Part shown: piece by piece, positions 1,194 through 13,157 of the stretch
Position numbering within the stretch: position 1 is the stretch's first letter
Layout of the letters: the number at the start of each line of letters is the position of its first letter
Assembly (NCBI GenBank): GCA_045535205.1
Contig: JAZSLF010000141.1
Coordinates: 1 to 59,503 of the forward strand
Direction of reading: 5' to 3'
Length of the DNA: 59,503 nt
Source of the DNA: Eubacteriales bacterium
Lineage (GTDB): Bacteria; Bacillota; Clostridia; Oscillospirales; CAG-272
Notes under the pieces: model-generated
Told to the model about the DNA's origin: nothing
The model's input: only the letters and a program-made list of their open reading frames with translations
Database searches by the model: none
Made by a program: the position numbers and the translations under genes

Positions 1194-1231
1194 TAAAAAA
1201 ACCGACAAGTTGAAGCTTGTCGGTTTTTTAT
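1194..1231. terminator. Bidirectional rho-independent terminator (end of the island operon; also closes the tRNA region)
   Basis: A7, then ACCGACAAG-TTGAAG-CTTGTCGGT (1201-1224), then T6. The A-run and T-run allow it to work on both strands. Confidence 0.8.
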
Positions 1232-1368: not shown

Positions 1369-2505
1369 TTACTGAATAATGGGCAGGATTATGATCTGAC
1401 CCACAAATATTGAATCAGGATCGCTGATACCGTTGAGTGCAAGAATGATATTAACGGTTCCATGATAATCTATTCCGTAATCGTTGCAGATTTTAAGCAA
1501 GGAGTCGCCTGCCTCAACTGTATGAGAAACAAAGCCGACAAGCTTATCCTCTCCTTCAACGGAAACGTCACCTATAAGGTTTTTGACCTGCTGTATTACT
1601 TCTTCATGTGCTTCAATTGACGCTTCATTGTTTTCGACACGGCCAACGAGCCCCTCTACGTTTGTGCCCGAAGTATCAACGGGCTCATCGGTAAGAAGAC
1701 TCTGCAGATCTTTAATCGTACTGCTTTGCTCGTCAATGATCTCCGCTTGTTCCTGAAGCTTGAGGATCGCAGCCTGCTGCTGTTTCATTTGCTCGTTATA
1801 TTTTTTGTTTATATTGATAACGAAGCCGCTGAGAACAATGGTTGCAACACATAGGAACGACACAAGTGCCGTAATCAGCCTGCCGGGTGCCGCAGCGGTG
1901 CTTTTTTTAGGAGAATCAACTCTCTTTTGCTCGATCTTTATGACCTTGCCAACCTCATCGTATATATAATAACCTTTAAGCTTTTCGGTTTTTCCGTTTT
2001 TCCATTGGAAAAAGCCTCTGAGATTTTGAATGGGGTCAATGACGTAGGCCACCTGAAAAGGCATATTGAAAAAGTTGTCCTGAATGAAAAGGTCGTAGTT
2101 TGAAAGAAAAATGCCGTAGTTGGGATGAGTATGCTGCCAGCCGATGATCTTTTTATTGGGATAAAGAATATCGTGCTGTTTATGTACGTAGTCCCACGTT
2201 TCATGAGTGAAGGTCAACGTAGAAGCAGAAGCGTCAGTATATTTTGCTTCAATATAATCGGAAATAACAACGTGTGTTTTTCCAAGCTGCTCACAATAAT
2301 CGCCTATCAGAATAGTACCCAGCTCTTTTGATGTGTTTGAAACGGCATATTTTTCAAGAGCTCTGTATACGTCTTGCTTAATATAAACCTTCACGTCATC
2401 GGGTTCAAACTCACCAAAAGAAAGAAAATTGAGAGGTAACTGTACGCTTCCTCCTTCAGTTTTTGTTTCTTCGACTGAAAATTCTATATCAAAATCTTTT
2501 TCCAC
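1369..2505 (-). CDS. JAB/MPN (JAMM) metallopeptidase - TM - coiled coil - LysM protein (JAB-B)
   Basis: The JAMM motif HTHPNYGIFLSNYD fits HxHx7Sx2D. One hydrophobic helix is present (LITALVSFLCVATIVLSGFVI), followed by a Q/E-rich coiled coil. The C-terminus is LysM-like (HTVEAGDSLLKICNDYGIDY...NGISDPDSIFVGQIIILP). I prefer the GTG start at 2505, which is preceded by AAAGGAGAG directly after the upstream stop. The ORF-track start at 2556 would overlap the upstream gene by 37 nt. Confidence 0.85.
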   Translation of the reverse strand: MEKDFDIEFSVEETKTEGGSVQLPLNFLSFGEFEPDDVKVYIKQDVYRALEKYAVSNTSKELGTILIGDYCEQLGKTHVVISDYIEAKYTDASASTLTFTHETWDYVHKQHDILYPNKKIIGWQHTHPNYGIFLSNYDLFIQDNFFNMPFQVAYVIDPIQNLRGFFQWKNGKTEKLKGYYIYDEVGKVIKIEQKRVDSPKKSTAAAPGRLITALVSFLCVATIVLSGFVININKKYNEQMKQQQAAILKLQEQAEIIDEQSSTIKDLQSLLTDEPVDTSGTNVEGLVGRVENNEASIEAHEEVIQQVKNLIGDVSVEGEDKLVGFVSHTVEAGDSLLKICNDYGIDYHGTVNIILALNGISDPDSIFVGQIIILPIIQ

Positions 2506-2519
2506 CTGTATCTCTCCTT

Positions 2520-3437
2520 TTAGATATTCGAAATAATCGTTATCGTCACAATCCAAGCAACGATAGCAATAACAAGTGCGACAGTATTAACTCCGCCGTT
2601 TTTCTGAACGTACTGAGTTCTGTAGGGCTCACTCATTGTCTTTAGCTGATTTGCGTGTTTTTCAAGCCACTTCATGTATATATAGTTGCTGAATATACCC
2701 GCAACGATATATCCGCCCAAAGCCAACACCGATAAGAATGGAACACCGATCAAAGAAATTAAAAATAAACCGCCGAACATCCCGCATCCGTAGCCATACA
2801 TTTTACGGTATATAAACCAGAAGGGTGTAACCAAAAATGCCGCTGTGTTCCACGTGTTCTTTTTATTTTGCGATTTCATCTCTTGAAATTTTGATACATA
2901 ATAGTCCTTGTTAGCACCGATCAACACCTCTACGTCGGGATCAATGACGGTACTCGCTTGTTGACTGTAAGCATTATGATCGTATGAGCTCGTATTCTGC
3001 TGATACTGCGTTGTATTCTGCTGATACTGCGGAGTGTATGCCGACTGAGAGGTGCCGTTTTGCTGAGTATAAGCGTAAGGATCCGTATTAGCAGGGTTTG
3101 ATTGAGTACAAACGGGAGCAGCCGAGGGCTCTTTCAACCGATTGCCGCATCGACTGCAGAACGCAGAATCACCCGAGTACTTTGTACCGCATTTGCTGCA
3201 ATAAATTACTGAAGCCGCAGAATCATCCTCGTAGATAAGCTCCGTGGCGGTAACAGTATCGGAAACACCGCCCGCAGCCTTTATGGTTCCGGTACAGCCG
3301 AAGGTGGTACAGCCTTGATTTTCTACCCAACAGTCCTTATGATGAGGCATATCACAGTTGCTGCATACAACAATGTCATCATTTTCTTTAAATTCAGTTT
3401 TGCAAAAAGGACATATCTTTCCAAAATATATGCTCAT
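2520..3437 (-). CDS. RING-like (prokaryotic RING/treble-clef) + zinc-ribbon + multi-TM protein (RING-1)
   Basis: The N-terminus CPFCKTEFKENDDIVVCSNCDMPHHKDCWVENQGCTTFGC has C-x2-C...C-x2-C..HH..C...C..C cross-brace spacing. A zinc ribbon CSKCG...FCSRCG follows, then a Q/Y/T-rich linker. The C-terminus has 3 hydrophobic helices and looks DUF2628-like (FWFIYRKMYGYG). Confidence 0.8.
   Translation of the reverse strand: MSIYFGKICPFCKTEFKENDDIVVCSNCDMPHHKDCWVENQGCTTFGCTGTIKAAGGVSDTVTATELIYEDDSAASVIYCSKCGTKYSGDSAFCSRCGNRLKEPSAAPVCTQSNPANTDPYAYTQQNGTSQSAYTPQYQQNTTQYQQNTSSYDHNAYSQQASTVIDPDVEVLIGANKDYYVSKFQEMKSQNKKNTWNTAAFLVTPFWFIYRKMYGYGCGMFGGLFLISLIGVPFLSVLALGGYIVAGIFSNYIYMKWLEKHANQLKTMSEPYRTQYVQKNGGVNTVALVIAIVAWIVTITIISNI
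2992..3031. repeat. Tandem 21-bp repeat x2 inside the RING-1 linker
   Basis: GTATTCTGCTGATACTGCG occurs at 2992-3010 and 3013-3031. It encodes the QYQQNT duplication in the low-complexity linker. Confidence 0.85.
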
Positions 3438-3438
3438 T

Positions 3439-4578
3439 TCAGTTATCCTCGCCGTTTGTGTTATCGGAAGGCTCTCCGTTATCGAAATCGCCGTTGTTTA
3501 CCTTGTTATCATCTTTCTGATTGCTGTCGGCATCGTCAGCATTACCGTCTGAAGCGCCGTCAATATTTGAATTACCGCTTTCATCTGCGTTTTGATCCGT
3601 ATTGCCGGTGTTTGTGTTAGTTCCCTGATTGGTGACTTCAGCTGTAGGATCTCCGTTTACGTTTTCGCCGTCGTTTGCCGCTTCGTTTGAAGAAGCATCG
3701 ATCTCGCCGAGGCTTTCGTCAGTTGATTCTTGGAGCTCTTTGAGGGAGTTTTCAGCCTGTTCAAGCTCATTTTCAAGCGCTGAGACCTTGGTCTGCAGAT
3801 TTGTCACCCTTTTATCAAGATTAGTGAAATTCTGATTAGCGGCTTCGATAAAAAGCTTTTGCTGCTGTTCAAGATTTTCGATCTTATTATGCTGACTTAT
3901 ATTCAAAACGGATAAAACGACTATCGAAACAACAAGAATTGCAATAATAAAGCTCTTTAAATTCAGCGAAGATTCGCTTGTTACCGAGCCGGCGTCGTCA
4001 GCCTCAACCTCTCCTTTGATCTTAGCACCCGTTTTATCAAACTTGAAAAAGCCTTTGCATCTTTCTATTTTACCGTTTATCCAGAAGTAAAAGCCTTCTA
4101 TATTTTGAATGGGGTCAACAACGTAAGCTATCTGATATTCTTCTTTGAAGAAGTTTTCCTGAATAAACTTATCGTATTCGGAAAGAAAGATGCCGAAGTT
4201 GGGGTGAGTATGGATCCAACCGACGATCTTCTGACCGGGATACTTTCTATCCATTTCCTTATGAACAAAGTCCCACGTTTCATGGGTGAATTTCAATGTG
4301 GTGGGAGTTGCTTCACAATATTTAGCTTCGATAAAACCCTTTATTATAATATTGGTTTTACCAAATTCTTCGATAACACTGCCGATAAGCATACCGCCGC
4401 TTTCGTTCGTGGTCTTATTTTGAGTAAACTTATGTATCTCGTTATACACCGGCTGAGATATATAAATATTTTTATTCTCCTCAACACGCTCTCCTATCGA
4501 CAGAATATTCTGAGGAAGAACGTTTTCGTTTGTCGGTACATTTTTTACACTCTTTTTTGAACTTTTTTTCTTTGCCAT
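3439..4578 (-). CDS. JAB/MPN (JAMM) metallopeptidase - TM - coiled coil - acidic low-complexity tail (JAB-A)
   Basis: The JAMM motif is HTHPNFGIFLSEYD. It is a close paralog of JAB-B (FTHETWDFVHKE.../FTHETWDYVHKQ...). A TM helix (FIIAILVVSIVVLSVLNI), a coiled coil and a D/N/G/E-rich tail follow. The ATG at 4578 (MAKKKSS) has a GGAG 8 nt upstream. The ORF-track GTG at 4587 overlaps the protease stop. Confidence 0.85.
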   Translation of the reverse strand: MAKKKSSKKSVKNVPTNENVLPQNILSIGERVEENKNIYISQPVYNEIHKFTQNKTTNESGGMLIGSVIEEFGKTNIIIKGFIEAKYCEATPTTLKFTHETWDFVHKEMDRKYPGQKIVGWIHTHPNFGIFLSEYDKFIQENFFKEEYQIAYVVDPIQNIEGFYFWINGKIERCKGFFKFDKTGAKIKGEVEADDAGSVTSESSLNLKSFIIAILVVSIVVLSVLNISQHNKIENLEQQQKLFIEAANQNFTNLDKRVTNLQTKVSALENELEQAENSLKELQESTDESLGEIDASSNEAANDGENVNGDPTAEVTNQGTNTNTGNTDQNADESGNSNIDGASDGNADDADSNQKDDNKVNNGDFDNGEPSDNTNGEDN

Positions 4579-4583
4579 ATTTA

Positions 4584-5507
4584 TCACTCCAATATATCAA
4601 TATCAAAATCCGTTCTTTCTCTCGGATCATATTTCAAGTTCAAATTTTTTCTTTTTTGAAACACCAGCATTATTATCAGAATAACGTTTATTGTTACAGA
4701 TCCGCACAATGCAACGATAAGGATCAGTTCCATTAACGGCATGGATTTCAAAACGTTCCAAACGTCTGTATAGGTTTCGTTGACGTCTTTGTCAAAAAAC
4801 TCGGCGGTATCTTCCGTTTCCGACTCGTACTCCTCCCCTGCACCGTCACGTGATAATACTTCGCAAACGTTACCGTTGGCATCGAGCTCTATGCCGAGTG
4901 ACTGAACGAACTCGCACACCGCTGTCATCGGTATAGCAAGACCTATACCCTCGCTGTCAGACATTTTAAGAGTATTTATGCCGATAACGTTACCCTCGTC
5001 ATTAAGAAGCGGACCGCCGCTGTTACCCTCGTTGACTGCGGCATCTGTCTGAATGTATTTGTATTTACCCACTTCTCTTTCCTTGGCGGAAATAACACCC
5101 TTTGTAAGAGTATATGCCATGCTGTTGGGAGCACCGACGGCATATACGTCGTCACCTGTATTCAGAGCGTCGGGATCCGCAACGGTGAGTGTTGGGAAAG
5201 AAGCATCCGCAACACCCAGAACAGCTATATCCTTATCGGCGTCATAACCGACCGTATAGGCAGGAAAGCTTTCTCCCGAATAAGCCGTCAGCACAACGTT
5301 ATCAACATCGTCTATCACGTGTGCATTCGTAACAACACAGTTTTCTCCAATGGCAAAGCCGCTGCCGAGTGAGAGTCCTGACGTTACGATAAAAACAGAA
5401 CTGTATTTTTCTTCCGCATTAAAACCGATTGCGCTTGAAGACAGCGGAAGGGCGAATAATACCGCCACCGCACAGATTATAGATATTACTGCTCTTTGCA
5501 GCTTCAC
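4584..5507 (-). CDS. Secreted trypsin-like (S1/HtrA-type core, no PDZ) serine protease with C-terminal TM anchor
   Basis: A signal peptide is present (MKLQRAVISIICAVAVLFALPLSSSA). The triad contexts are VTNAHVI, DKDIAVL and GNSGGPLL. The C-terminal helix is LMELILIVALCGSVTINVILIIMLVF. The start codon is GTG. Confidence 0.85.
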   Translation of the reverse strand: MKLQRAVISIICAVAVLFALPLSSSAIGFNAEEKYSSVFIVTSGLSLGSGFAIGENCVVTNAHVIDDVDNVVLTAYSGESFPAYTVGYDADKDIAVLGVADASFPTLTVADPDALNTGDDVYAVGAPNSMAYTLTKGVISAKEREVGKYKYIQTDAAVNEGNSGGPLLNDEGNVIGINTLKMSDSEGIGLAIPMTAVCEFVQSLGIELDANGNVCEVLSRDGAGEEYESETEDTAEFFDKDVNETYTDVWNVLKSMPLMELILIVALCGSVTINVILIIMLVFQKRKNLNLKYDPRERTDFDIDILE

Positions 5508-5538
5508 GATATTACTCGCCCCCTAATTATTATTTATT

Positions 5539-7437
5539 TTATTTTGTATTGAAAACCAGCACGGAGTTACCGATAGCAATAGCATCTCCCTGACGGAGAA
5601 TGTGTCTTGCGGTTCTCATGCCGTTAACAACGGTTCCCATCGGTGTTCCGCAGTCGTGGAGCACGTATTTGCTTCCTTCAAGTACAATGTCACAGTGGTG
5701 AGGTCCGACAAGCTTGTCCTTGAAAAGAACGATGGTGTTCTTGCCGTTATTACCGATACTTGTAGTTCCGGCAAATACAAGGTATTCCTTGCCTTCAAAC
5801 TCACCTCTGATAACCTTGAGCCAAGCCTGTTTTGCAAACTGTTCAAGAAGTCCTACACCAAGACCGATCAAGAGTCCCATGATGACGATCGCAACACCTC
5901 TGGCCACTACGTCGTTAGGAATAATGTCGCATATATAGTTGAACAGGAAGCCGCCGAGGAAGCCGCCTGCCAAGCCGCCGAGAGCACAGTAAAGCATTCT
6001 TTTCTTTTCGGGCTTAATAAGACCTACGGCAACACCGATGCCGAGACCCATGATCGCCCAGCCGAGACCACGGATAAACGCAGCCGCAAAATCGGAGGGA
6101 TCGTCGCCGAGCATCGACGCATACATCCATTGTGCCAAATATCCGCTGATAAAACCAAGACCGAGCGAGACACCCGCACCTATTGCGGCATATTTGATCG
6201 CCTTTTCCTTTGAACCGTAGAAGATACCTTCACCTAATCCGAGGAACAGTCCGATAAAGAGTGCAAGTACGCCGGACCACAACGCAGTGCTTAAACGTGT
6301 AACGTTAGCCAAAGCATCTTTCAGAGCCGAGTCACTCTCATGATATTCATATTGATATGAATTATAGAGAGCTTCGCTTGATCTGTCATCATAATCTGAA
6401 TAATCATCCAGATAACCCTTTGCTTCCGCTGTTGCATATTCGGTATACCAAAGCTCAAAAGCTGAGGAATTATCGGGATCATATTTATTCTTCTTGCAGA
6501 AATCTTCGTAAATATCGTATGCTTTATCAAAGGCTTTGTCTGCCTTGTTTTCATAGTCATAATAATCAGCCAGATAAGACTTGCCCATAAGATTTGCTAT
6601 AAATACGCTATTCACGTCACTTCCGCCGGTCATTTCGGTTATTGCAAAGCCAAGAATAGCGCCGATAAGCGCCCAAAGCAAACCTTTTACGAGAATGGTC
6701 TTAAAGTTGATCTTTCCGCCCTTGACCGTACCGCCGCTTGATACTGTCTGCATTCTTTGAGCAGTAGGAACGAACTCAATTCCCGCAAGTTCCTCGGCAG
6801 TTATTTCAAAATCGTTCTCCTCGGGCTTGTTTTCCGTTATAACAGGAGCAGGGGCATTAATTACTGACTCTGTACTGACAAGGGTCTCAGCCGCTTCTGC
6901 AGGCTGTTCTTCGGCGATAACTGCACCGTCGTCATCAAACAGATCTATTTCAACGGTATCCTTTGCAGAAGCATAGTCAGCAATATAAAGCTCTGCGTTG
7001 CCTACGGGGAAAAGATGCTTATTTTCCATAGCCCACTGTGCCGCTTCTGCAGAAAGAGGACTGTAGGAGTTCCATGACTTATACTGGATCATATCGCCGA
7101 TATTAATGATAATATCGCTCAAGGATTCACCTGCACCCCAAATATCACCGATACAGATCTGTCCGTCTCTGAAGTTCGGATGCCAGATAGGTGTAAGTAT
7201 TTTGCAGATCGGTTTATATCTCGGATATTCAGCATGAAGCGTGATCTCAACCTCATGCCGAGCAAGTGTTTCTATTCTTCCGTCGGGCAAAAGATAAATA
7301 CCGTTTACGAAATATGTAACGTGATATTTTTCGGGCGGTTCCTCTCCGATCGGAGTAACAATGATATTTCTATGACCTGTAAAATCTTTTCTGACCTGTT
7401 CCCAGTCAGAAGCAAGACGTCTCATTCTTGCTGTCAT
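5539..7437 (-). CDS. UBC-like E2 domain - 6 TM helices - FHA domain fusion protein
   Basis: The N-terminus is RRLASDWEQVRKDF...YPRYKPICKILTPIWHPNFRDGQICIGDIW. HPN at aa 86-88 and Cys95 match E2 active-site geometry. Six Gly-rich hydrophobic helices span about aa 245-525. The C-terminus is FHA-like (GNNGKNTIVLFKDKLVGPHHCDIVLEGSKYVLHDCGTPMGTVVNG...LRQGDAIAIGNSVLVF). The start ATG is 1 nt after the E1 stop, with RBS GAGGAGGG. Confidence 0.85.
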   Translation of the reverse strand: MTARMRRLASDWEQVRKDFTGHRNIIVTPIGEEPPEKYHVTYFVNGIYLLPDGRIETLARHEVEITLHAEYPRYKPICKILTPIWHPNFRDGQICIGDIWGAGESLSDIIINIGDMIQYKSWNSYSPLSAEAAQWAMENKHLFPVGNAELYIADYASAKDTVEIDLFDDDGAVIAEEQPAEAAETLVSTESVINAPAPVITENKPEENDFEITAEELAGIEFVPTAQRMQTVSSGGTVKGGKINFKTILVKGLLWALIGAILGFAITEMTGGSDVNSVFIANLMGKSYLADYYDYENKADKAFDKAYDIYEDFCKKNKYDPDNSSAFELWYTEYATAEAKGYLDDYSDYDDRSSEALYNSYQYEYHESDSALKDALANVTRLSTALWSGVLALFIGLFLGLGEGIFYGSKEKAIKYAAIGAGVSLGLGFISGYLAQWMYASMLGDDPSDFAAAFIRGLGWAIMGLGIGVAVGLIKPEKKRMLYCALGGLAGGFLGGFLFNYICDIIPNDVVARGVAIVIMGLLIGLGVGLLEQFAKQAWLKVIRGEFEGKEYLVFAGTTSIGNNGKNTIVLFKDKLVGPHHCDIVLEGSKYVLHDCGTPMGTVVNGMRTARHILRQGDAIAIGNSVLVFNTK

Positions 7438-7438
7438 T

Positions 7439-8629
7439 TCAATCCCTCCTCAATTCTTCAAATACTTCCGGCTCATCACCGGCAAATTCATAATAGATCG
7501 TATTCATTCCAACACGAACTCCGACAATGTGCAACAAAGGAATACCGATCTCAAACAGCGTTTTATCAAGAAAATCCTCAGTTCCGTTTACGGAGTGGAA
7601 GCTGTCAAAGGACATCTGATTTCCGCATTTTTCACAAGTGAGCATTTCGCCTTTAAGCTTATGCACAGGCATATAAAGCTCTTTATGTTCGCCGCAAGTA
7701 CATTTTCCGACAGCGGCAATATCTCTGTCAAACTCAACGACAGCCTTCTCGCCCAGCTCCGAACGGCCGACGCTGAGAAGCTCGGCAAGGGTCATGGTTC
7801 TGACAGACCAATCCTTTTCCACTATGTTAGTATAGGTGTCGTGACTCATGCAGTCTGCCTTCTCCTGATACTCTACAACGTAGGAATCGTGGGTCAGACC
7901 GTTAAATACGTAGCCCTTTCCTGCTAACGTAGGAAGCTCTCTGTCACTGTGAAGCAGCTTCAGCATCTCCTGCACCTGAATACCCGCAATAACAGATGAC
8001 GATGTGGGAGTTGTCGGTATCTTGCCCTCTGCCATCTGTTCATGTGTAAGCAGAGCGCAGGATTTTCTCTTGTTAATCAATCTCCAGTCTGTTTCCGTCA
8101 TGGTGCATTCATAGCACGCACCCTGACCGGGTATAAACACACGGGCAAATCCGTTTAAGGCTTCAATTGCTCCGTCTATCCAAGGCTTGTCCACCTTATA
8201 GCAGGACTGATTGATCGCAAGACGAGCCTCTCTGTTGTCAAGTCCGCCGAGAACTACGCTCATTCTGCGAAACACACCCAAACCGACATCGTCAATTATG
8301 TTTGCAATAAAAGCCTTAGCCTTGACGTCGGGATTGATCTCCATCGCCCTTTCAGATGCCACCTCGGCTTTGTATCTGCCTACGTCTTTTGCACGATATA
8401 AGACAGAACGTGTGAGGTTGGTATTTTCAATACCGTCCATATCAAATATAAGAATTTTTCCTATTCCAAGCAAGGCAAGGTTTTTTATAAGCTCATTACC
8501 GATCGCTCCTGCGCCCACGACCATGACCGTGGCATTGTTCAGGCGATCCTGATCCCACCACGGTATAAGTCTAAGCCTACTGTATCGGTCTTCTTCAAAA
8601 TCAGAATTGTTTAATTCAATGTTTTCCAT
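7439..8629 (-). CDS. E1-like ubiquitin-activating enzyme (ThiF/MoeB/UBA superfamily)
   Basis: The nucleotide loop is VMVVGAGAIGNE. Other superfamily motifs are FDMDGIENTNLTRS and GLDNREAR. The CYEC ... CEKCG zinc site is present. The candidate catalytic Cys sits in NKRKSCALL. An extra C-terminal domain of about 120 aa is in the UFD position. Confidence 0.85.
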   Translation of the reverse strand: MENIELNNSDFEEDRYSRLRLIPWWDQDRLNNATVMVVGAGAIGNELIKNLALLGIGKILIFDMDGIENTNLTRSVLYRAKDVGRYKAEVASERAMEINPDVKAKAFIANIIDDVGLGVFRRMSVVLGGLDNREARLAINQSCYKVDKPWIDGAIEALNGFARVFIPGQGACYECTMTETDWRLINKRKSCALLTHEQMAEGKIPTTPTSSSVIAGIQVQEMLKLLHSDRELPTLAGKGYVFNGLTHDSYVVEYQEKADCMSHDTYTNIVEKDWSVRTMTLAELLSVGRSELGEKAVVEFDRDIAAVGKCTCGEHKELYMPVHKLKGEMLTCEKCGNQMSFDSFHSVNGTEDFLDKTLFEIGIPLLHIVGVRVGMNTIYYEFAGDEPEVFEELRRD

Positions 8630-8640
8630 CGCATCACCTA

Positions 8641-9372
8641 TTATTTGGCATTAGACAAGCTTCTCATTTTTACGATAAAATAGAATAAGAAGATAAGACC
8701 GATTGCGATAAGTAAATTTCCAAAGCCTGCAGCTACGATCTCAGCTAAAGCTCTGACGTTGTTGGCAGTCTGAGCCGCAGCATTCTGAATACCCGTATAT
8801 GCATCGCCGCCGTACGAACTTGCAGATTCATAAGCACCCGTATACTTTGAAAGAGTCGAAAAGCCTAAAATCATTGACACAATACTTGCGAGCATTCCGA
8901 ATATGCAGGGAATTCTGCCTTTGATTTTTTTCTTGGCTTTTTGGGGACTTTCGTCGGGAGCAACTGTGTATTTAGGGCCTGTGCTGTACGAGGGCGCCGC
9001 ATTATAATTGGGAGCGCTTGTCTGAGGAGCTGTCAGAGACGCACCGCACTTGCTGCAGAATAATTCTCCGTCATTTTCCGCATTTCCGCACTGTGAACAA
9101 ACTGCGCCTGCGGTGATCTCGGGCTGAAGACGAAGAACGTCGCCGTCTTTGATACCCGCTTCGCCGAGCGTCTGAGCTTCAAGAAGCTGACGGCCCGTTA
9201 CCTTATGTATGAATTTATAGCTGATGGGGTTGCCGTCGGGGCCAACTGAGGGAAGCTTGATCTTCTCAACAAGCTTTACCATGATAATCCCGCATTTAAT
9301 ATCGTCAGGCAAACCAACCTTCTGCTCTTTATTACCTGTTGCATCTACGATAACTACATTAACTTTTCCCAT
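8641..9372 (-). CDS. Ubiquitin-like beta-grasp domain - zinc ribbon - 2 TM protein (Ubl precursor candidate)
   Basis: Aa 1-89, KVNVVIVDATGNKEQKVGLPDD...TLGEAGIKDGDVLRLQPEITAG, shows a Ub/YukD-like pattern and ends in LRL...AG (Gly89 = 9106-9108). CSQCG...FCSKCG follows. Two hydrophobic helices are IPCIFGMLASIVSMILGF and LAEIVAAGFGNLLIAIGLIFLFYFIV. RBS AGGAGAAAC. Confidence 0.75.
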   Translation of the reverse strand: MGKVNVVIVDATGNKEQKVGLPDDIKCGIIMVKLVEKIKLPSVGPDGNPISYKFIHKVTGRQLLEAQTLGEAGIKDGDVLRLQPEITAGAVCSQCGNAENDGELFCSKCGASLTAPQTSAPNYNAAPSYSTGPKYTVAPDESPQKAKKKIKGRIPCIFGMLASIVSMILGFSTLSKYTGAYESASSYGGDAYTGIQNAAAQTANNVRALAEIVAAGFGNLLIAIGLIFLFYFIVKMRSLSNAK

Positions 9373-9525: not shown

Positions 9526-9864
9526 TTAAATTTTTTGTCCGCACTTTGAACAAAAAGCCTGACCGCTTCGCAGCGCCGCACCGCATCTAGAGCAGAATTT
9601 CGGTGCTGAGTTCTTAGGACTGCCGCATTTTGCGCAGAATAACTCTCCTGCACCAAAAACGTAACCGCATCTGACACAAACGTCTGAAGTGCCACTTTCA
9701 GCTTCATGATCTCGTTCCAGACAGCCAAAGGTCGTACACCCGTCATTTTCACGCCAACAGTCTATATGATGCGGAATATTACAAGCGGGACATACTTTGA
9801 TTTCTTCATCCTCTTTTATCGGGGTTTTACAAAAAGGACAAATCTTTCCAACATAATTTTCCAT
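9526..9864 (-). CDS. Soluble RING-like (prokaryotic RING/treble-clef) protein with two zinc ribbons (RING-2)
   Basis: CPFCKTPIKEDEEIKVCPACNIPHHIDCWRENDGCTTFGC is a paralog of the RING-1 N-terminus. CVRCG..FCAKCG and FCSRCG..FCSKCG follow. No TM segment. RBS GGAGG. Confidence 0.8.
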   Translation of the reverse strand: MENYVGKICPFCKTPIKEDEEIKVCPACNIPHHIDCWRENDGCTTFGCLERDHEAESGTSDVCVRCGYVFGAGELFCAKCGSPKNSAPKFCSRCGAALRSGQAFCSKCGQKI

Positions 9865-9875
9865 ATAAACCTCCG

Positions 9876-10916
9876 TTAGTTGATTACGGGAAGACCGCTG
9901 ACAATGCTTTCCACGCTGTCACTTGCATCTGAAACCAACGTAGCCATCTCGCTTATCGTATCAAGCGCATCGTTTACACTTTTAGAAGAATAATATCCCG
10001 TACCGTAATAAAGATCACCCAATTCTGTTTCTATAGTTGAAAGTGCAGAGATATATTTTACACACAATTCGTCACCGGTAGAGACTTCCTTTGCGGCAGC
10101 TACGGCATTTTCAGCACTCGTATGTGCGTATCCTGCGTACAGCTTTGTAACGTAATAGGATGATGACTTTGCAGCACTTGTTACATTTTCAATACACTCC
10201 GAACAATCGCTCATCGAATTGAGAACGCATCTACTGACACCGTTGTACTTTACATAGTCGGAAAGCTCTAATACTTGCGATATGTAACGCCTGACGTTTG
10301 TACCATCAGAGGAGTTTATTCTCAACAATCCACCGATAACGTCGTACATTTCATACTTCTCAAGAAGCTCCGTATTAACAAGCCAACCCGACAGCTCGAC
10401 ATACTGGTTATCGGAAACCTCGTCTACGAACGCATCTATGATCTTGTCTCTGAATAACATCTGCCCGATGGGAGTCAACGAATTATAATTCGATTCAATG
10501 ATCGTATATGACGGATCTGAAGATTTTATTTCATCAATTATGCTTTCTGCCATTCCGTTTAAATGAACATATCCGCCGATGGCAGCTGCCGCAAGAATTC
10601 CGACAATTATTAATATTACGACAAGTGCCTTTGATTTTGACTTTTTCTTCTTTTCTTGTTGTACGATGTTTTGATTGAATTGTGAAATAGCATCAGACAC
10701 CTGAGGAGAGTTCGGCTGCGGTGAATAGGTCTCTCCCTTCTTGTGACCGCAATTAGTACAAAACACCTTGTTTTCCGTCAATTCAGTTCCGCAAAATGCG
10801 CATACAACGATGCCATTTCCGTTGCTTTCGGGTGCTGACTGATTATCAGCTGTCTGAGATACAGCATCTGACACCTCAGAGGTTTGATCCATTACCAAAT
10901 TTTTTTCGTCATTCAT
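9876..10916 (-). CDS. Zinc-ribbon - TM - extracytoplasmic domain protein (unknown function)
   Basis: The N-terminal ribbon is CAFCGTEL..FCTNCGHK. The TM helix is ALVVILIIVGILAAAAIGGYV. I do not recognise the ectodomain of about 220 aa. RBS AAGGAGA. Confidence 0.7.
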   Translation of the reverse strand: MNDEKNLVMDQTSEVSDAVSQTADNQSAPESNGNGIVVCAFCGTELTENKVFCTNCGHKKGETYSPQPNSPQVSDAISQFNQNIVQQEKKKKSKSKALVVILIIVGILAAAAIGGYVHLNGMAESIIDEIKSSDPSYTIIESNYNSLTPIGQMLFRDKIIDAFVDEVSDNQYVELSGWLVNTELLEKYEMYDVIGGLLRINSSDGTNVRRYISQVLELSDYVKYNGVSRCVLNSMSDCSECIENVTSAAKSSSYYVTKLYAGYAHTSAENAVAAAKEVSTGDELCVKYISALSTIETELGDLYYGTGYYSSKSVNDALDTISEMATLVSDASDSVESIVSGLPVIN

Positions 10917-10933
10917 ATTTTCTCCTTATTCTT

Positions 10934-11599
10934 TTATCCTTGAGGCAAACACGTGCCGCAAGGTTCATATTCTCCTGTTTCAAATTGTTCTACGGTTAAT
11001 CTGCTTGTATTACTTTTGTTTTTTACGTGAATACAGTCTGCCTGATGATACTTGTTACCGGTCTCGGTAATCACGTAATCCCCATAGTATTCCTTATCCC
11101 TTGTAAGCCATCCGACTCCGATCAGCCCAGCAATAAGAATCAGGCACACTGCGCTCAGCCAAACTTTATTTTTATTAACGAAAAACGCTCCTTTGTCAAT
11201 TATTGACGGATTAGTCAAGCTGTAGACAAACTCGTTTGACTCAGCCTCTTGCTGAACGTCACGTCCCAGATAGGTGTTTTCCTCGATATGTCCGCAAAAA
11301 ATATGACCTTCCTCATGAAGCAAGACATTAAACTTTTCATCTGCCGACAGATCCTCATGCACAAAAACAAGTCTGTTTTTAGCGTCTGCATAAGTGAAAC
11401 CCTTTCTCTCCGAAACGAGACGGTCTAAGTTTAACCGTTCAATAATCAACGCCACATCTTCATCGTTAAATATGGAGTTGAATTCAATTATCGTATAACC
11501 TTGAGATGCGATAATTCTTTTCAGTCTTTCCGCAGTCGGACAGATAAGACCGTACTTTTTTCTGAAAGCTTTAGCGGCTTTTTTTCCCGATACACTCAT
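10934..11599 (-). CDS. ImmA/IrrE-family zinc metallopeptidase with TM helix and C-terminal H/C metal-binding motif
   Basis: HEXXH lies in LLHEEGHIFCGH. The TM helix is VWLSAVCLILIAGLIGVGWL. The C-terminal motif is YHQADCIHV...YEPCGTC. The start overlaps the XRE stop (ATGA). Confidence 0.75.
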   Translation of the reverse strand: MSVSGKKAAKAFRKKYGLICPTAERLKRIIASQGYTIIEFNSIFNDEDVALIIERLNLDRLVSERKGFTYADAKNRLVFVHEDLSADEKFNVLLHEEGHIFCGHIEENTYLGRDVQQEAESNEFVYSLTNPSIIDKGAFFVNKNKVWLSAVCLILIAGLIGVGWLTRDKEYYGDYVITETGNKYHQADCIHVKNKSNTSRLTVEQFETGEYEPCGTCLPQG

Positions 11600-12207
11600 A
11601 ATTTACCGTTCCCGCTTCCCTTAACATTTTTCAGCGCCCGCTTCACAGCCTCGTCATCCTTGGTTATACCCTTGCTAAACGATCTGCCGTCGAAAGACTT
11701 TATCACAGCCTCACCCGGAAGATTACTGCACCGTGCATACTCCACCATTATCAACGTGCGTATTGCGTGAATGGCTTGTTCGTCGAGAATATCTTTTATG
11801 TTTTCGATTGAAATTCCGACAAGCCGTTCAAAGCTCGTAAAGTCTTCGCTTTCGTTTATACGATCTACCAGCTCTGAGGGAAATGCCGATATGGCTCTGA
11901 TCATTTTGTGTGTCGATTGATTGTAATCGAAAAAAAAGATCAAGGAAAGATACGTATTCCACGACATTTTTCTGTCTTTACGCTCGATCCAACCATAGTT
12001 TTGTCTTGAAATACCTATTATCTTTGCGAGTGCTTCTTGAGATATGTCAGCCTTCGCTCTCAACATCGGTAATTCGTCTGTAAGAATGTCTATGTATCTG
12101 TCTTTTTCTTCGGGTGTGATCTGCCATCTTTCTTTACTGTCCAAGATTTTCATCTCCTTCCCCGTTTTTTCGTAGAGTATTTTACTATACGAAAATGTTT
12201 GTTTCAT
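11596..12207 (-). CDS. XRE-family helix-turn-helix regulator
   Basis: The HTH is ISQEALAKIIGISRQNYGWIERKDRKMSW. The ATG at 12207 overlaps the recombinase stop (ATGA) and reads through IR-L. An alternative start is ATG 12153 (MKILDSKERW), preceded by GGGGAAGGAG. Confidence 0.8.
   Translation of the reverse strand: MKQTFSYSKILYEKTGKEMKILDSKERWQITPEEKDRYIDILTDELPMLRAKADISQEALAKIIGISRQNYGWIERKDRKMSWNTYLSLIFFFDYNQSTHKMIRAISAFPSELVDRINESEDFTSFERLVGISIENIKDILDEQAIHAIRTLIMVEYARCSNLPGEAVIKSFDGRSFSKGITKDDEAVKRALKNVKGSGNGKL
12167..12201. repeat. IR-L: 35-bp perfect inverted repeat flanking the recombinase gene (candidate recombination core site)
   Basis: TTTTCGTAGAGTATTTTACTATACGAAAATGTTTG is the exact reverse complement of 13301-13335. 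It contains an internal dyad, TTTTCGTAGAGTA / TACTATACGAAAA (13-nt arms, 1 mismatch), like the paired arms of tyrosine-recombinase core sites. Confidence 0.9.
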
Positions 12208-13157
12208 TCGTAATTCAGTTTTTTCAGATTTTGCCGTTTCATCTCAAAAGAGGAATGTACGTATCTGTTAAGAGTTATATTTACGTTTGAATGTCCGAGC
12301 GTTTCACTTAATGTTTTTACGTCAACACCAACCTCTACACACCGTGTTGCAAACGTATGCCGCAAGGTGTGAAAGCTAACGTTTTCTATTGAAAGCTTTT
12401 GCATTATCTTATTAAATCTGTTTTCCATTGTTCTCGGTTCGATAAATCTGTCGGCATCTCCCGTTAAAATATATGCTCCCTTTCTGTATTCTGCTGCCGC
12501 CAGTCTCTCCATTATAAAATCCTGTATAGGAATTTCTCTCACAGAGCTTTTGCTTTTGGGCGCTGTTATTGAAATATATGTTTTGTTGTTATCGTTGTCC
12601 CGCTTATGCTGAAGTCTCTGCATTGTTTTTGTTATGGTTACTTTTTTCGTCTCCATATCAAAATCCTCTATATTCAGAGCACACAGTTCCCCTATTCTTA
12701 TACCCGTATAGAAGGCAATAAGTATTCCAAGCTCAGTAAAACCCGTTTGCGTCATCAGATATTGATTTACAATAGCTTGTTCTTTGTGCGAAAGCACCTT
12801 TAATTTAACGTCAGGCTGTTTTACGGATAACAAGGTTGGGTTACAAGAAAGAGAATATCCGAGTGTTTCTGCATAATGTAGAATTGCTTTTATTATGATC
12901 GCTATGTCGCAAACGGTTTTTTGTGACAGTCCTCCGCTGTAATCGAGCCGTCCGTCTGTGGAAAAACCGATTATTGTTTCTTCTAATTTTAATAACGTTA
13001 AATCTTCTATCAGCTCGTTGCCAAGCTTTGCTTCAATATGATTTTTTAACAAATTATAATAATGAATATAGGTTGATCTTTTGGTGGTTGTTTCTTTCTT
13101 TTTGATCCATAGCTCAGCTACGTTTCTGAAATATATTTGATTATTTGAAAATACCAT
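12204..13157 (-). CDS. Tyrosine site-specific recombinase (phage-integrase family, short form without arm-binding domain)
   Basis: An N-terminal SAM-like core-binding region is present. The catalytic contexts are TGIRIGELCAL (Arg), HTLRHTFAT (HxxR) and GHSNVNITLNRYVH (His/Tyr). 317 aa. RBS AGGAGG. Confidence 0.9.
   Translation of the reverse strand: MVFSNNQIYFRNVAELWIKKKETTTKRSTYIHYYNLLKNHIEAKLGNELIEDLTLLKLEETIIGFSTDGRLDYSGGLSQKTVCDIAIIIKAILHYAETLGYSLSCNPTLLSVKQPDVKLKVLSHKEQAIVNQYLMTQTGFTELGILIAFYTGIRIGELCALNIEDFDMETKKVTITKTMQRLQHKRDNDNNKTYISITAPKSKSSVREIPIQDFIMERLAAAEYRKGAYILTGDADRFIEPRTMENRFNKIMQKLSIENVSFHTLRHTFATRCVEVGVDVKTLSETLGHSNVNITLNRYVHSSFEMKRQNLKKLNYE

Follow-up and report, generated by a model that had tools for sequence, protein, structure and literature searches.

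A UBC-fold E2 fused to a predicted six-helix membrane domain and a degenerate FHA domain in a putative ubiquitin-like conjugation cassette of Clostridia

To our knowledge, three bacterial pathways of ubiquitin-like protein (Ubl) conjugation have been worked out, those of Cap2 in the cyclic oligonucleotide-based antiphage signaling system (CBASS), of Bil and of Bub, and all three are soluble and act without a RING E3. A further class, prokaryotic operons combining a RING protein, an E1, an E2, a JAB peptidase and a YukD-like Ubl, was reportedly predicted by comparative genomics by Burroughs, Iyer and Aravind in Mol Biosyst in 2011, and the Pfam family Prok-RING_1 (PF14446) presumably stems from that work. 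RING-containing bacterial operons were still called uncharacterized by Chambers et al. in 2023, and literature searches turned up no experiments on operons of this class. Here we analyze such a locus in a 59,503-nucleotide stretch (the window) from a Eubacteriales bacterium (Clostridia, Oscillospirales, CAG-272; assembly GCA_045535205.1, contig JAZSLF010000141.1, positions 1 to 59,503). The gene at its center (5539..7437, minus strand) encodes a protein of 632 residues that consists of an E2 domain, a tether, six transmembrane segments with an ectodomain, and an FHA domain. This architecture is real, conserved and unusual, while the operon class had already been predicted computationally. The explanation that we favor, with confidence a little above even, is that the protein is the E2 of a membrane-anchored Ubl-conjugation cassette of 9 to 12 genes on a chromosomal island, the membrane and FHA module serving to anchor the E2 and the FHA domain acting as a phospho-independent scaffold.

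The cassette shares with the operons of the 2011 class a transmembrane Prok-RING_1 protein, a YukD-family Ubl, a ThiF-type E1, an E2 with a His-Pro-Asn (HPN) motif and JAB peptidases; Prok-RING_1 was matched twice (4.5e-14 and 9.1e-12). Like the cassette, Bil (BilABCD) has separate genes for the Ubl, the E1, a Cys-based E2 and a JAB deubiquitinase (DUB), with conjugation as its output, but it is soluble, is devoid of RING, transmembrane, FHA and protease components, and has an ISG15-like Ubl, versus a YukD-like one here. We ruled out that the cassette is Bil, since the one match from PADLOC was a partial one of the E1 to BilD (weak, 2.6e-7), the E2 and the Ubl having none. Bub and type II CBASS (Cap2/Cap3) also place bacterial E1/E2-type conjugation on mobile or defense islands, but Bub works through Ser/Tyr oxyesters, Cap2 acts on a CD-NTase as a fusion of E2 and E1, and neither feature is present in the cassette. 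Bub (6E/DUF6527) combines a catalytic-Ser E2 with a DUF6527 protease (PMC11601596); in the cassette the E2 cysteine is invariant and DUF6527 was found in none of 10 proteins, which excludes this assignment. Type II CBASS is excluded by the separate E1 and E2 genes and by the lack of a CD-NTase among the cassette proteins. In endoplasmic reticulum-associated degradation (ERAD), Ubc6/UBE2J and the RING E3s Doa10/Hrd1 work on the cytosolic face of the membrane with HPN/Cys chemistry, as predicted for the cassette. Eukaryotic membrane E2s are held by a single-helix tail anchor, whereas the present protein is polytopic, and nothing indicates that their membrane parts share an ancestor. We know of no polytopic eukaryotic membrane E2 and of none with an FHA domain.

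The E2 open reading frame (ORF) starts with an ATG one base past the stop codon of the E1 gene and has GAGGAGG as its ribosome-binding site. Its first 150 residues (6988..7437, minus strand) have the UBC fold with a eukaryote-type HPN...Cys active site. Pfam UQ_con matched residues 61-143 with 34.1 bits (curated cut-off, 27 bits), and a sequence search of the PDB matched residues 44-143 to eukaryotic E2s (clam E2-C, 1e-6; Rad6/UBE2A/B, about 5e-6). The AlphaFold2 (AF2) model of the whole protein, built with 19 homologues (mean predicted local distance difference test, pLDDT, 73.7), comprised a UBC-like domain, a disordered stretch (152-242), an all-helical part (245-535) and a beta-sandwich (538-631). 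The UBC domain consisted of an N-terminal helix, a four-stranded sheet and C-terminal helices, and Foldseek aligned it with Rad6b, a Naegleria E2 and Ubc15 at template-modeling (TM) scores of 0.68-0.71 (E 4.5e-5 to 1.5e-4). An earlier note on this DNA, made from its letters alone, had recognized an E2 by its motifs. These were found where it had put them, RRLASDWEQVRKDF at residues 6-19, YPRYKP at 71-76, WHPNF at 85-89 and ICIGDIW at 94-100, so that the cysteine is Cys95, and the modeling bore out its assignment of a UBC fold.

H86, P87, N88 and C95 (active-site stretch at 7153..7182, minus strand) were invariant in all 193 distinct full-length fused sequences, and in the wider E2 clade YPxxxP, HPN, the Cys, D98, W100 and S126-P127 were all kept in 54 of 56 representatives. 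The E2 looks catalytically intact, and thioester transfer from the E1 is predicted from its context. In the two exceptions in the clade, the full-length fusions P0137 and P0138, HPN is changed to HPS or HPL and the catalytic Cys to Ala or Lys; judged by sequence, they are dead E2s similar to ubiquitin E2 variants (UEVs) that still carry the transmembrane-FHA part. Mean identity among the 193 sequences amounted to 90% for the E2, 91% for the FHA domain, 94% for a motif in the tether and 35% for the ectodomain. The earlier note had described an E2 fused to six membrane helices and an FHA domain, and Pfam, hydropathy and AF2/Foldseek together established that this fusion, with an active-looking UBC domain, is real. 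Its statement that no characterized E2 has such an architecture agreed with our literature searches, which turned up no experimental example.

The C-terminal domain (residues 537-632; 5542..5829, minus strand) has an FHA fold. Pfam FHA (PF00498) matched residues 559-623 (42.6 bits), and the best Pfam match was Yop-YscD_cpl over residues 541-630 (44.2 bits). Residues 537-631 matched the FHA domains of GarA and OdhI in the PDB sequence search (7e-7), and Foldseek superposed the model on GarA with a TM score of 0.95 (root-mean-square deviation 1.1 Å, 97 residues). Because the structures superpose this closely, the HMMER alignment to GarA can be trusted; it placed N563, G578 and M600 at the phosphate-contacting Arg, Ser and Asn, and of the four canonical pocket residues only the structural His (H581) is retained. 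Among the 193 fused sequences, the Arg position held N in 187, S in 5, K in 1 and R in none; the Ser position held G in 163, A in 19 and S in 9; the Asn position was M in 179 and the His position H in 192. The Arg was also missing from all seven fusion representatives at 50% identity and from the stand-alone transmembrane-FHA proteins of Ubl operons (P0149, P0155, P0159, P0165). Thus, the FHA fold reported by the earlier note was confirmed, but three of the four phosphothreonine (pThr)-binding residues that it named, Arg, Ser and Asn, are gone and only the His stays.

The earlier note had gone on to suggest that conjugation is recruited to, or gated by, a target phosphorylated by a Ser/Thr kinase. 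This is unsupported because the phosphate-binding residues have been lost. The earlier note had seen no kinase in the window, and a scan for the HRDxKxxN plus DFG signature found no ORF carrying it in the window or within about 10 kb in 83 related loci. The replacements in the pocket are themselves conserved and the domain is as constrained as the E2, which indicates selection for something else. The pocket, N/G/H/T/M (N563, G578, H581, T598, M600) for R/S/H/S/N, is thus conserved and non-canonical, and most likely accommodates a protein partner without phosphate. In one FHA domain of P0152, a stand-alone transmembrane-FHA relative, R-S-H-S-N is kept, and the gene lies in a neighborhood (L089) of vWA, DnaJ-FHA, PP2C and Pkinase-TPR genes; the module may have begun in phospho-signaling and later been re-purposed in Ubl cassettes.

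Our preferred guess for the FHA ligand is the Ubl or another subunit of the cassette, by analogy with the secretion system of type VIIb (T7SSb). There, tandem degenerate FHA domains of YukB/EssC clasp the Ubl YukD next to the membrane, in what is the sole solved complex of a YukD-family Ubl (PMC12637312). Both systems pair a YukD-family beta-grasp protein with a degenerate membrane-proximal FHA domain, which in T7SSb is a phospho-independent binding surface, but T7SSb YukD is not conjugated, whereas the cassette Ubl is accompanied by an E1 and an E2 and bears a Gly end of the processed type. The cassette is not a T7SSb, as no FtsK-type EssC/YukB ATPase, EssB or WXG100 protein was found by Pfam in the cassette or among the genes of L001, L003 and L087. 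YscD and PrgH of type III secretion (Foldseek matches 4a0e and 4d9v) likewise have an FHA fold devoid of pThr residues beside a membrane anchor, but they differ in domain order and belong to an unrelated system, so that the likeness is at the level of the fold.

Between the E2 and the membrane domain lies a disordered tether (residues 151-242; 6712..6987, minus strand; pLDDT below 50 over 152-242). Mean identity is 38% over residues 151-207, and residues 208-230 (6748..6816, minus strand) form the conserved linear motif NDFEITAEELAGIEFVPTAQRMQ, in which T213, followed by acidic residues, is present in 189 of the 193 fused sequences and is replaced by Asp or Ser in the distant fused homologues P0122 and P0131. 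Repeats akin to this motif (IEITxEDL) sit N-terminal to the transmembrane domain of a separate transmembrane-FHA protein in locus L087. The tether motif (FEITAEELAG) and the tail of the Ubl (PEITAG) have "EITA" in common. We considered that the tether might mimic the tail as a pseudo-substrate and rejected this, since the two do not co-vary: PEITAG is retained in distant operons whose tether motif has changed (FTITPEEL, IEISADEL, IEITLEDL).

The membrane domain (residues 243-536; 5830..6711, minus strand) comprises TM1, a helical ectodomain and TM2-TM6, which are rich in glycine zippers (18.6% Gly and 13 GxxxG motifs over residues 381-536). Hydropathy gave six hydrophobic segments (247-268, 382-405, 414-435, 452-473, 481-503 and 510-532), flanked by 12 Lys and Arg on the predicted inner side, that of the E2 and FHA domains, and by 2 on the outer side. 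This fits the positive-inside rule and supports a predicted topology with both termini inside, in agreement with the earlier note, which had placed both the E2 and the FHA domain in the cytoplasm. The ectodomain (residues 270-380; 6298..6630, minus strand), predicted to be extracytoplasmic, has well-modeled helices (pLDDT 85-95), is acidic (24 Asp and Glu versus 11 Lys and Arg) and is the fastest-evolving part of the protein. The charges E403, E532 and K536 at the membrane boundary are invariant. When residues 243-536 were modeled alone (AF2, 40 homologues), pLDDT was 95.6 and the predicted TM score 0.89, and a Foldseek search of the PDB with this model gave nothing significant (best E 0.36, TM score about 0.2).

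Further evidence came from the family. A word-indexed search gave 805 related protein clusters, and the best 120 of these, from which architecture was read, were all full length, 72-84% identical and endowed with the same three Pfam domains; the ORF is therefore not a chance one. The 7029 matches from an exhaustive search of 50%-identity representatives resolved into two modules, the E2 (residues 1-155) and five transmembrane helices plus FHA (5TM+FHA; residues of about 380-632). The E2 module also occurs alone or with other C-terminal extensions, the 5TM+FHA unit also occurs in proteins of 250-520 residues without an E2, and the full fusion reaches representatives down to 31% identity (P0121, P0122, P0125, P0131, P0137, P0138). 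From this distribution, we take the 5TM+FHA part to be an autonomous module. Relatives were found in at least 127 of 185,579 species genomes (one genome per species), almost all of them Clostridia (Oscillospiraceae, Acutalibacteraceae, Ruminococcaceae, Lachnospiraceae, Christensenellaceae); of the remainder, a few are classified as Synergistales and one as Roseiflexaceae. Massiliimalia massiliensis Marseille-P2963T and Lachnospiraceae LC2019 and MC2017 are among the carriers that have been cultured.

Some relatives have the domains in separate proteins. In L087, a 187-residue E2 is followed by a 246-residue FHA protein and a 361-residue transmembrane-FHA protein, in an operon that encodes a second E2 as well as RING proteins, YukD, ThiF, JAB-LysM and a trypsin-like protease; in L085, a 359-residue transmembrane-FHA protein is followed by the protease and then JAB-LysM. 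Thus, the split domains are not dispersed to unrelated loci but lie in adjacent genes of the same operon. That they are fused in one lineage and adjacent in another argues that the E2 and the transmembrane-FHA part work together. Two E2 genes each were found in the related operons L086 and L087.

The Ubl gene (8641..9372, minus strand) encodes a 243-residue precursor made up of a YukD-like beta-grasp domain (Pfam YukD, 1.2e-10), a Zn ribbon and two transmembrane helices. The beta-grasp part corresponds to residues 1-89 (9106-9372 in the window) and ends in ...LRLQPEITAG. The tail GDVLRLQPEITAG was invariant in about 75 loci and also held in operons where identity of the E2 drops to 43-47%. Translation stops right after the Gly in 14 loci; in the other loci tails of 1 to about 320 residues follow (GGEN, AM and GVL, for example). 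The precursor of the window (ITAG|AVCSQC...), like those of about a dozen loci, continues past the Gly into the Zn ribbon and two transmembrane helices, so that it would itself be membrane-anchored. Dispensable tails behind an unchanging Gly are the mark of peptidase-trimmed ubiquitin-type precursors. Given this end and the variable tails, the Ubl would have to be trimmed to expose its Gly, and, by analogy with established E1/E2/DUB chemistry, it looks conjugatable. Across the window (8641-9372), L001 (8515-8793) and about 75 other loci, conservation of the Ubl by far exceeds that of its enzymes. A PDB search gave the Ubl a weak, non-significant likeness to ubiquitin-L40 fusions.

All the genes of the cassette form a tight string on the minus strand, to which the coordinates that follow refer, and the E2 gene stands between the E1 gene upstream and a protease gene downstream. 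The E1 (7439..8629; 396 residues; Pfam ThiF, 1.3e-54), a ThiF/Uba1-like adenylating enzyme, is translationally coupled to the E2, and its closest solved relatives are eukaryotic Uba1 (2.5e-31), followed by ThiF/MoeB (about 1e-19). Upstream of the Ubl gene come a small RING protein (9526..9864; Prok-RING_1, 9.1e-12, plus a double zinc ribbon), which is a candidate E3, and a 346-residue Zn-ribbon protein with a single transmembrane helix (9876..10916), found in about 12 related loci. Further upstream lies a regulatory pair, namely an M78/ImmA-like metallopeptidase with a HEEGH motif and a transmembrane helix (10934..11599) and an XRE-type helix-turn-helix (HTH) protein (11596..12207). At the head of the string is a tyrosine recombinase/integrase (12204..13157), homologues of which were called Phage_integrase in L001.

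Downstream of the E2 gene, the HtrA/DegS-like trypsin-fold serine protease (4584..5507; Trypsin_2, 1.9e-31; NCBIfam Do/DegS matches) has an N-terminal signal or transmembrane helix and a C-terminal transmembrane anchor, and its catalytic domain is predicted to lie outside the cell. It is followed by a JAB/MPN metallopeptidase with a transmembrane segment and a coiled coil (3439..4587; Pfam; motif HTHPNFGIFLSEYD), by a candidate membrane E3 with RING (Prok-RING_1, 4.5e-14), Zn-ribbon and DUF2628 domains and transmembrane segments (2520..3437), and by a second JAB/MPN metallopeptidase with a transmembrane segment and a C-terminal, peptidoglycan-binding LysM domain predicted to be outside the cell (1369..2556). 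Both JAB proteins have intact HxHx7Sx2D motifs, and 8 of the 10 other cassette proteins have transmembrane segments. A terminator-like bidirectional hairpin with a 15-bp stem (1196..1229) lies just past the last gene. Promoter-like sites were not commoner than in shuffled sequence.

In 83 related loci that were searched with the window proteins, the order RING - Ubl - E1 - E2TMFHA - [protease] - [JAB] - [RING-TM] - JAB-LysM is near-universal. Among the 45 with enough flanking sequence to be counted, the Ubl and the RING protein were present in all, the E1 lay directly upstream of the E2 in 44 and the protease directly downstream in 35, JAB-LysM was present in 43, and the JAB protein with the coiled coil and the RING-TM protein in 38 each; the HTH and M78 pair was found upstream in 17 and an integrase homologue in 7. 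Pfam calls on L001-L003 agreed with the cassette and added a large serine recombinase and TnpV; in L003, a serine recombinase takes the place of the tyrosine integrase. Insertions were also seen, namely, in cassettes that are identical apart from it, a HEPN gene (Pfam pEK499_p136) between RING and Ubl in L001 (7926-8510) and at the same position in L002, and other small ORFs between E1 and E2 in L003 and L026. In the distant cassette L092, the RING proteins (4966-6492 and 10431-12548) have a PASTA domain and a faint SH3_3 match; these cell-wall-binding ectodomains, possibly so for SH3_3, take the place of the LysM theme.

From the known chemistry of E1, E2 and RING enzymes, the cassette could work as follows. 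A JAB peptidase would trim the Ubl precursor and expose Gly89, the E1 would adenylate the Ubl and hand it as a thioester to Cys95 of the E2, and the membrane-anchored RING proteins would discharge it onto target lysines along the membrane's inner face; the JAB proteins may also take the mark off again. The transmembrane-FHA module would dock the E2, on its flexible tether of about 90 residues, within a membrane complex, and the phosphate-independent FHA domain would serve as a protein-binding scaffold for the Ubl or another subunit. That this module is a separate neighboring gene in sister operons points to anchoring and positioning of the E2 as its job. The outward parts, LysM, the PASTA/SH3 domains on the RING proteins of relatives, the protease and the E2 ectodomain, suggest that conjugation is coupled to cell-wall or envelope events. 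More tentatively, and with considerable doubt, one may picture a transmembrane machine, linking the exterior of a Gram-positive cell with Ubl conjugation in its interior, in which the LysM/PASTA/SH3 domains, the HtrA-like protease and the E2 ectodomain would detect cell-wall or phage-entry events, the membrane fold would relay the signal and the FHA domain would hold the Ubl or a Ubl-charged partner and so control discharge from Cys95.

Several observations weigh against the cassette as we read it. The single-chain AF2 model showed no confident contact between the FHA domain and the tether, and the conserved T213 in its acidic motif leaves some room for phospho-regulation. A tblastn search of IMG/VR and of phage and plasmid records turned up no carrier element, and because of this the case for mobility comes from the neighboring recombinases alone. 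PADLOC gave no model match for the E2, the Ubl, the RING proteins, the Zn-ribbon protein or the M78 peptidase, so that the cassette is not a catalogued defense system.

A rival reading, along the lines of the earlier note, is that the FHA domain does read pThr, made by a Hanks-type kinase encoded elsewhere, and thereby recruits or gates the E2; in one variant, the target would be the tether of the E2 itself (...FEIT213AEEL). The certainty of the FHA fold speaks for it, as do the canonical-pocket members of the 5TM+FHA family in PP2C, Pkinase and vWA neighborhoods and the very high conservation of a tether motif with a near-invariant Thr before acidic residues. We nevertheless consider it quite unlikely, because the Arg is absent from 193 of 193 fused proteins and the Ser and Asn from most, because the conserved replacements imply a different ligand, and because no kinase motif was found in the window or the 83 loci; moreover, the tether Thr is Asp or Ser in P0122 and P0131, and the best Pfam match is to a phospho-independent, YscD-type FHA domain. 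It is also quite unlikely, in our view, that the glycine-zipper domain is an effector pore that depolarizes the cell in abortive infection, switched by Ubl conjugation or by cleavage of the ectodomain by the protease, the E2 being fused to what it regulates. Such a pore would account for the 13 GxxxG motifs and 18.6% Gly in TM2-TM6, the invariant boundary charges E403, E532 and K536, a fold with no solved relative in a module that exists on its own, and an extracytoplasmic protease that adjoins in 35 of 45 loci. The AF2 model, however, shows a monomer whose helices form a compact bundle in which no pore is apparent, glycine zippers are common in plain packing interfaces too, and the E2-dead variants that keep the module fit a scaffold equally well.

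The function of the cassette might also be one of housekeeping rather than immunity, an ERAD-like envelope proteostasis or signaling in which misfolded or regulated membrane and cell-wall-synthesis proteins would be tagged for extraction or proteolysis. The parallel with the membrane E2 and RING E3 pairs of the endoplasmic reticulum (Ubc6-Doa10/Hrd1), the HtrA/DegS-like quality-control protease, the LysM and PASTA modules and the very strong conservation of the Ubl are all in keeping with this, yet we regard it as unlikely: no proteasome or Cdc48-like unfoldase was found by Pfam among the cassette proteins, carriers are scattered (127 of 185,579 species genomes), the cassette has integrases or serine recombinases and TnpV beside it, an ImmA/ImmR-type switch lies upstream, and the inserts, including HEPN, are variable. 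The recombinases, the ImmR/ImmA-like HTH and M78 pair, the occasional HEPN insert and the patchy distribution are circumstantial evidence that the cassette probably has a role in conflict, against phages or mobile elements. CapH/CapP, which are similar HTH and M78 pairs, turn CBASS on upon DNA damage.

The membrane-anchored cassette that we favor would comprise a full eukaryote-style set (processed Ubl, Uba1-like E1, HPN/Cys E2, RING proteins and JAB DUBs) in the membrane of Clostridia that are common in gut and rumen, with E2-6TM-FHA as its invariant center. If the transmembrane machine pictured above is true, bacteria possess an E1-E2-RING-DUB system that is embedded in the membrane and ERAD-like, and its E1 and E2 are the most similar to those of eukaryotes known from bacteria. 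The cassette also bears on how bacterial RING E3s act, on the purpose of a polytopic E2 and on the ligand of a phosphate-blind FHA domain. A survey from 2024 found hardly any bacterial homologues for human E2 catalytic domains (PMC11354881); set against that result, an E2-TM-FHA family in at least 127 species genomes bears on the origin of the eukaryotic system.

Several minor observations concern the island. The 3' end of tRNA-Pro(cgg) (766-841), together with 32 nucleotides downstream, is repeated exactly 271 nucleotides further on (823-873 = 1094-1144; 51 nucleotides, 100%), and there is an imperfect second repeat (807-823 and 1035-1051). The arrangement resembles a scar of the att type between the tRNA gene and the cassette; no third copy of the repeat, of the kind that would mark an end of the island, was found past the integrase, and Rfam found the tRNA alone in positions 600-1400. 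The M78 peptidase has, besides its own transmembrane helix, a Cys/His-rich C-terminal tail (YHQADCIHV...CGTC), which is unusual for ImmA/IrrE-type regulators. Finally, near-identical cassettes were found in contigs L078, L077 and L027, which come from metagenome-assembled genomes labeled Escherichia coli, Phascolarctobacterium and Muribaculaceae; these probably represent a mis-binned Clostridia island, or possibly horizontal transfer.

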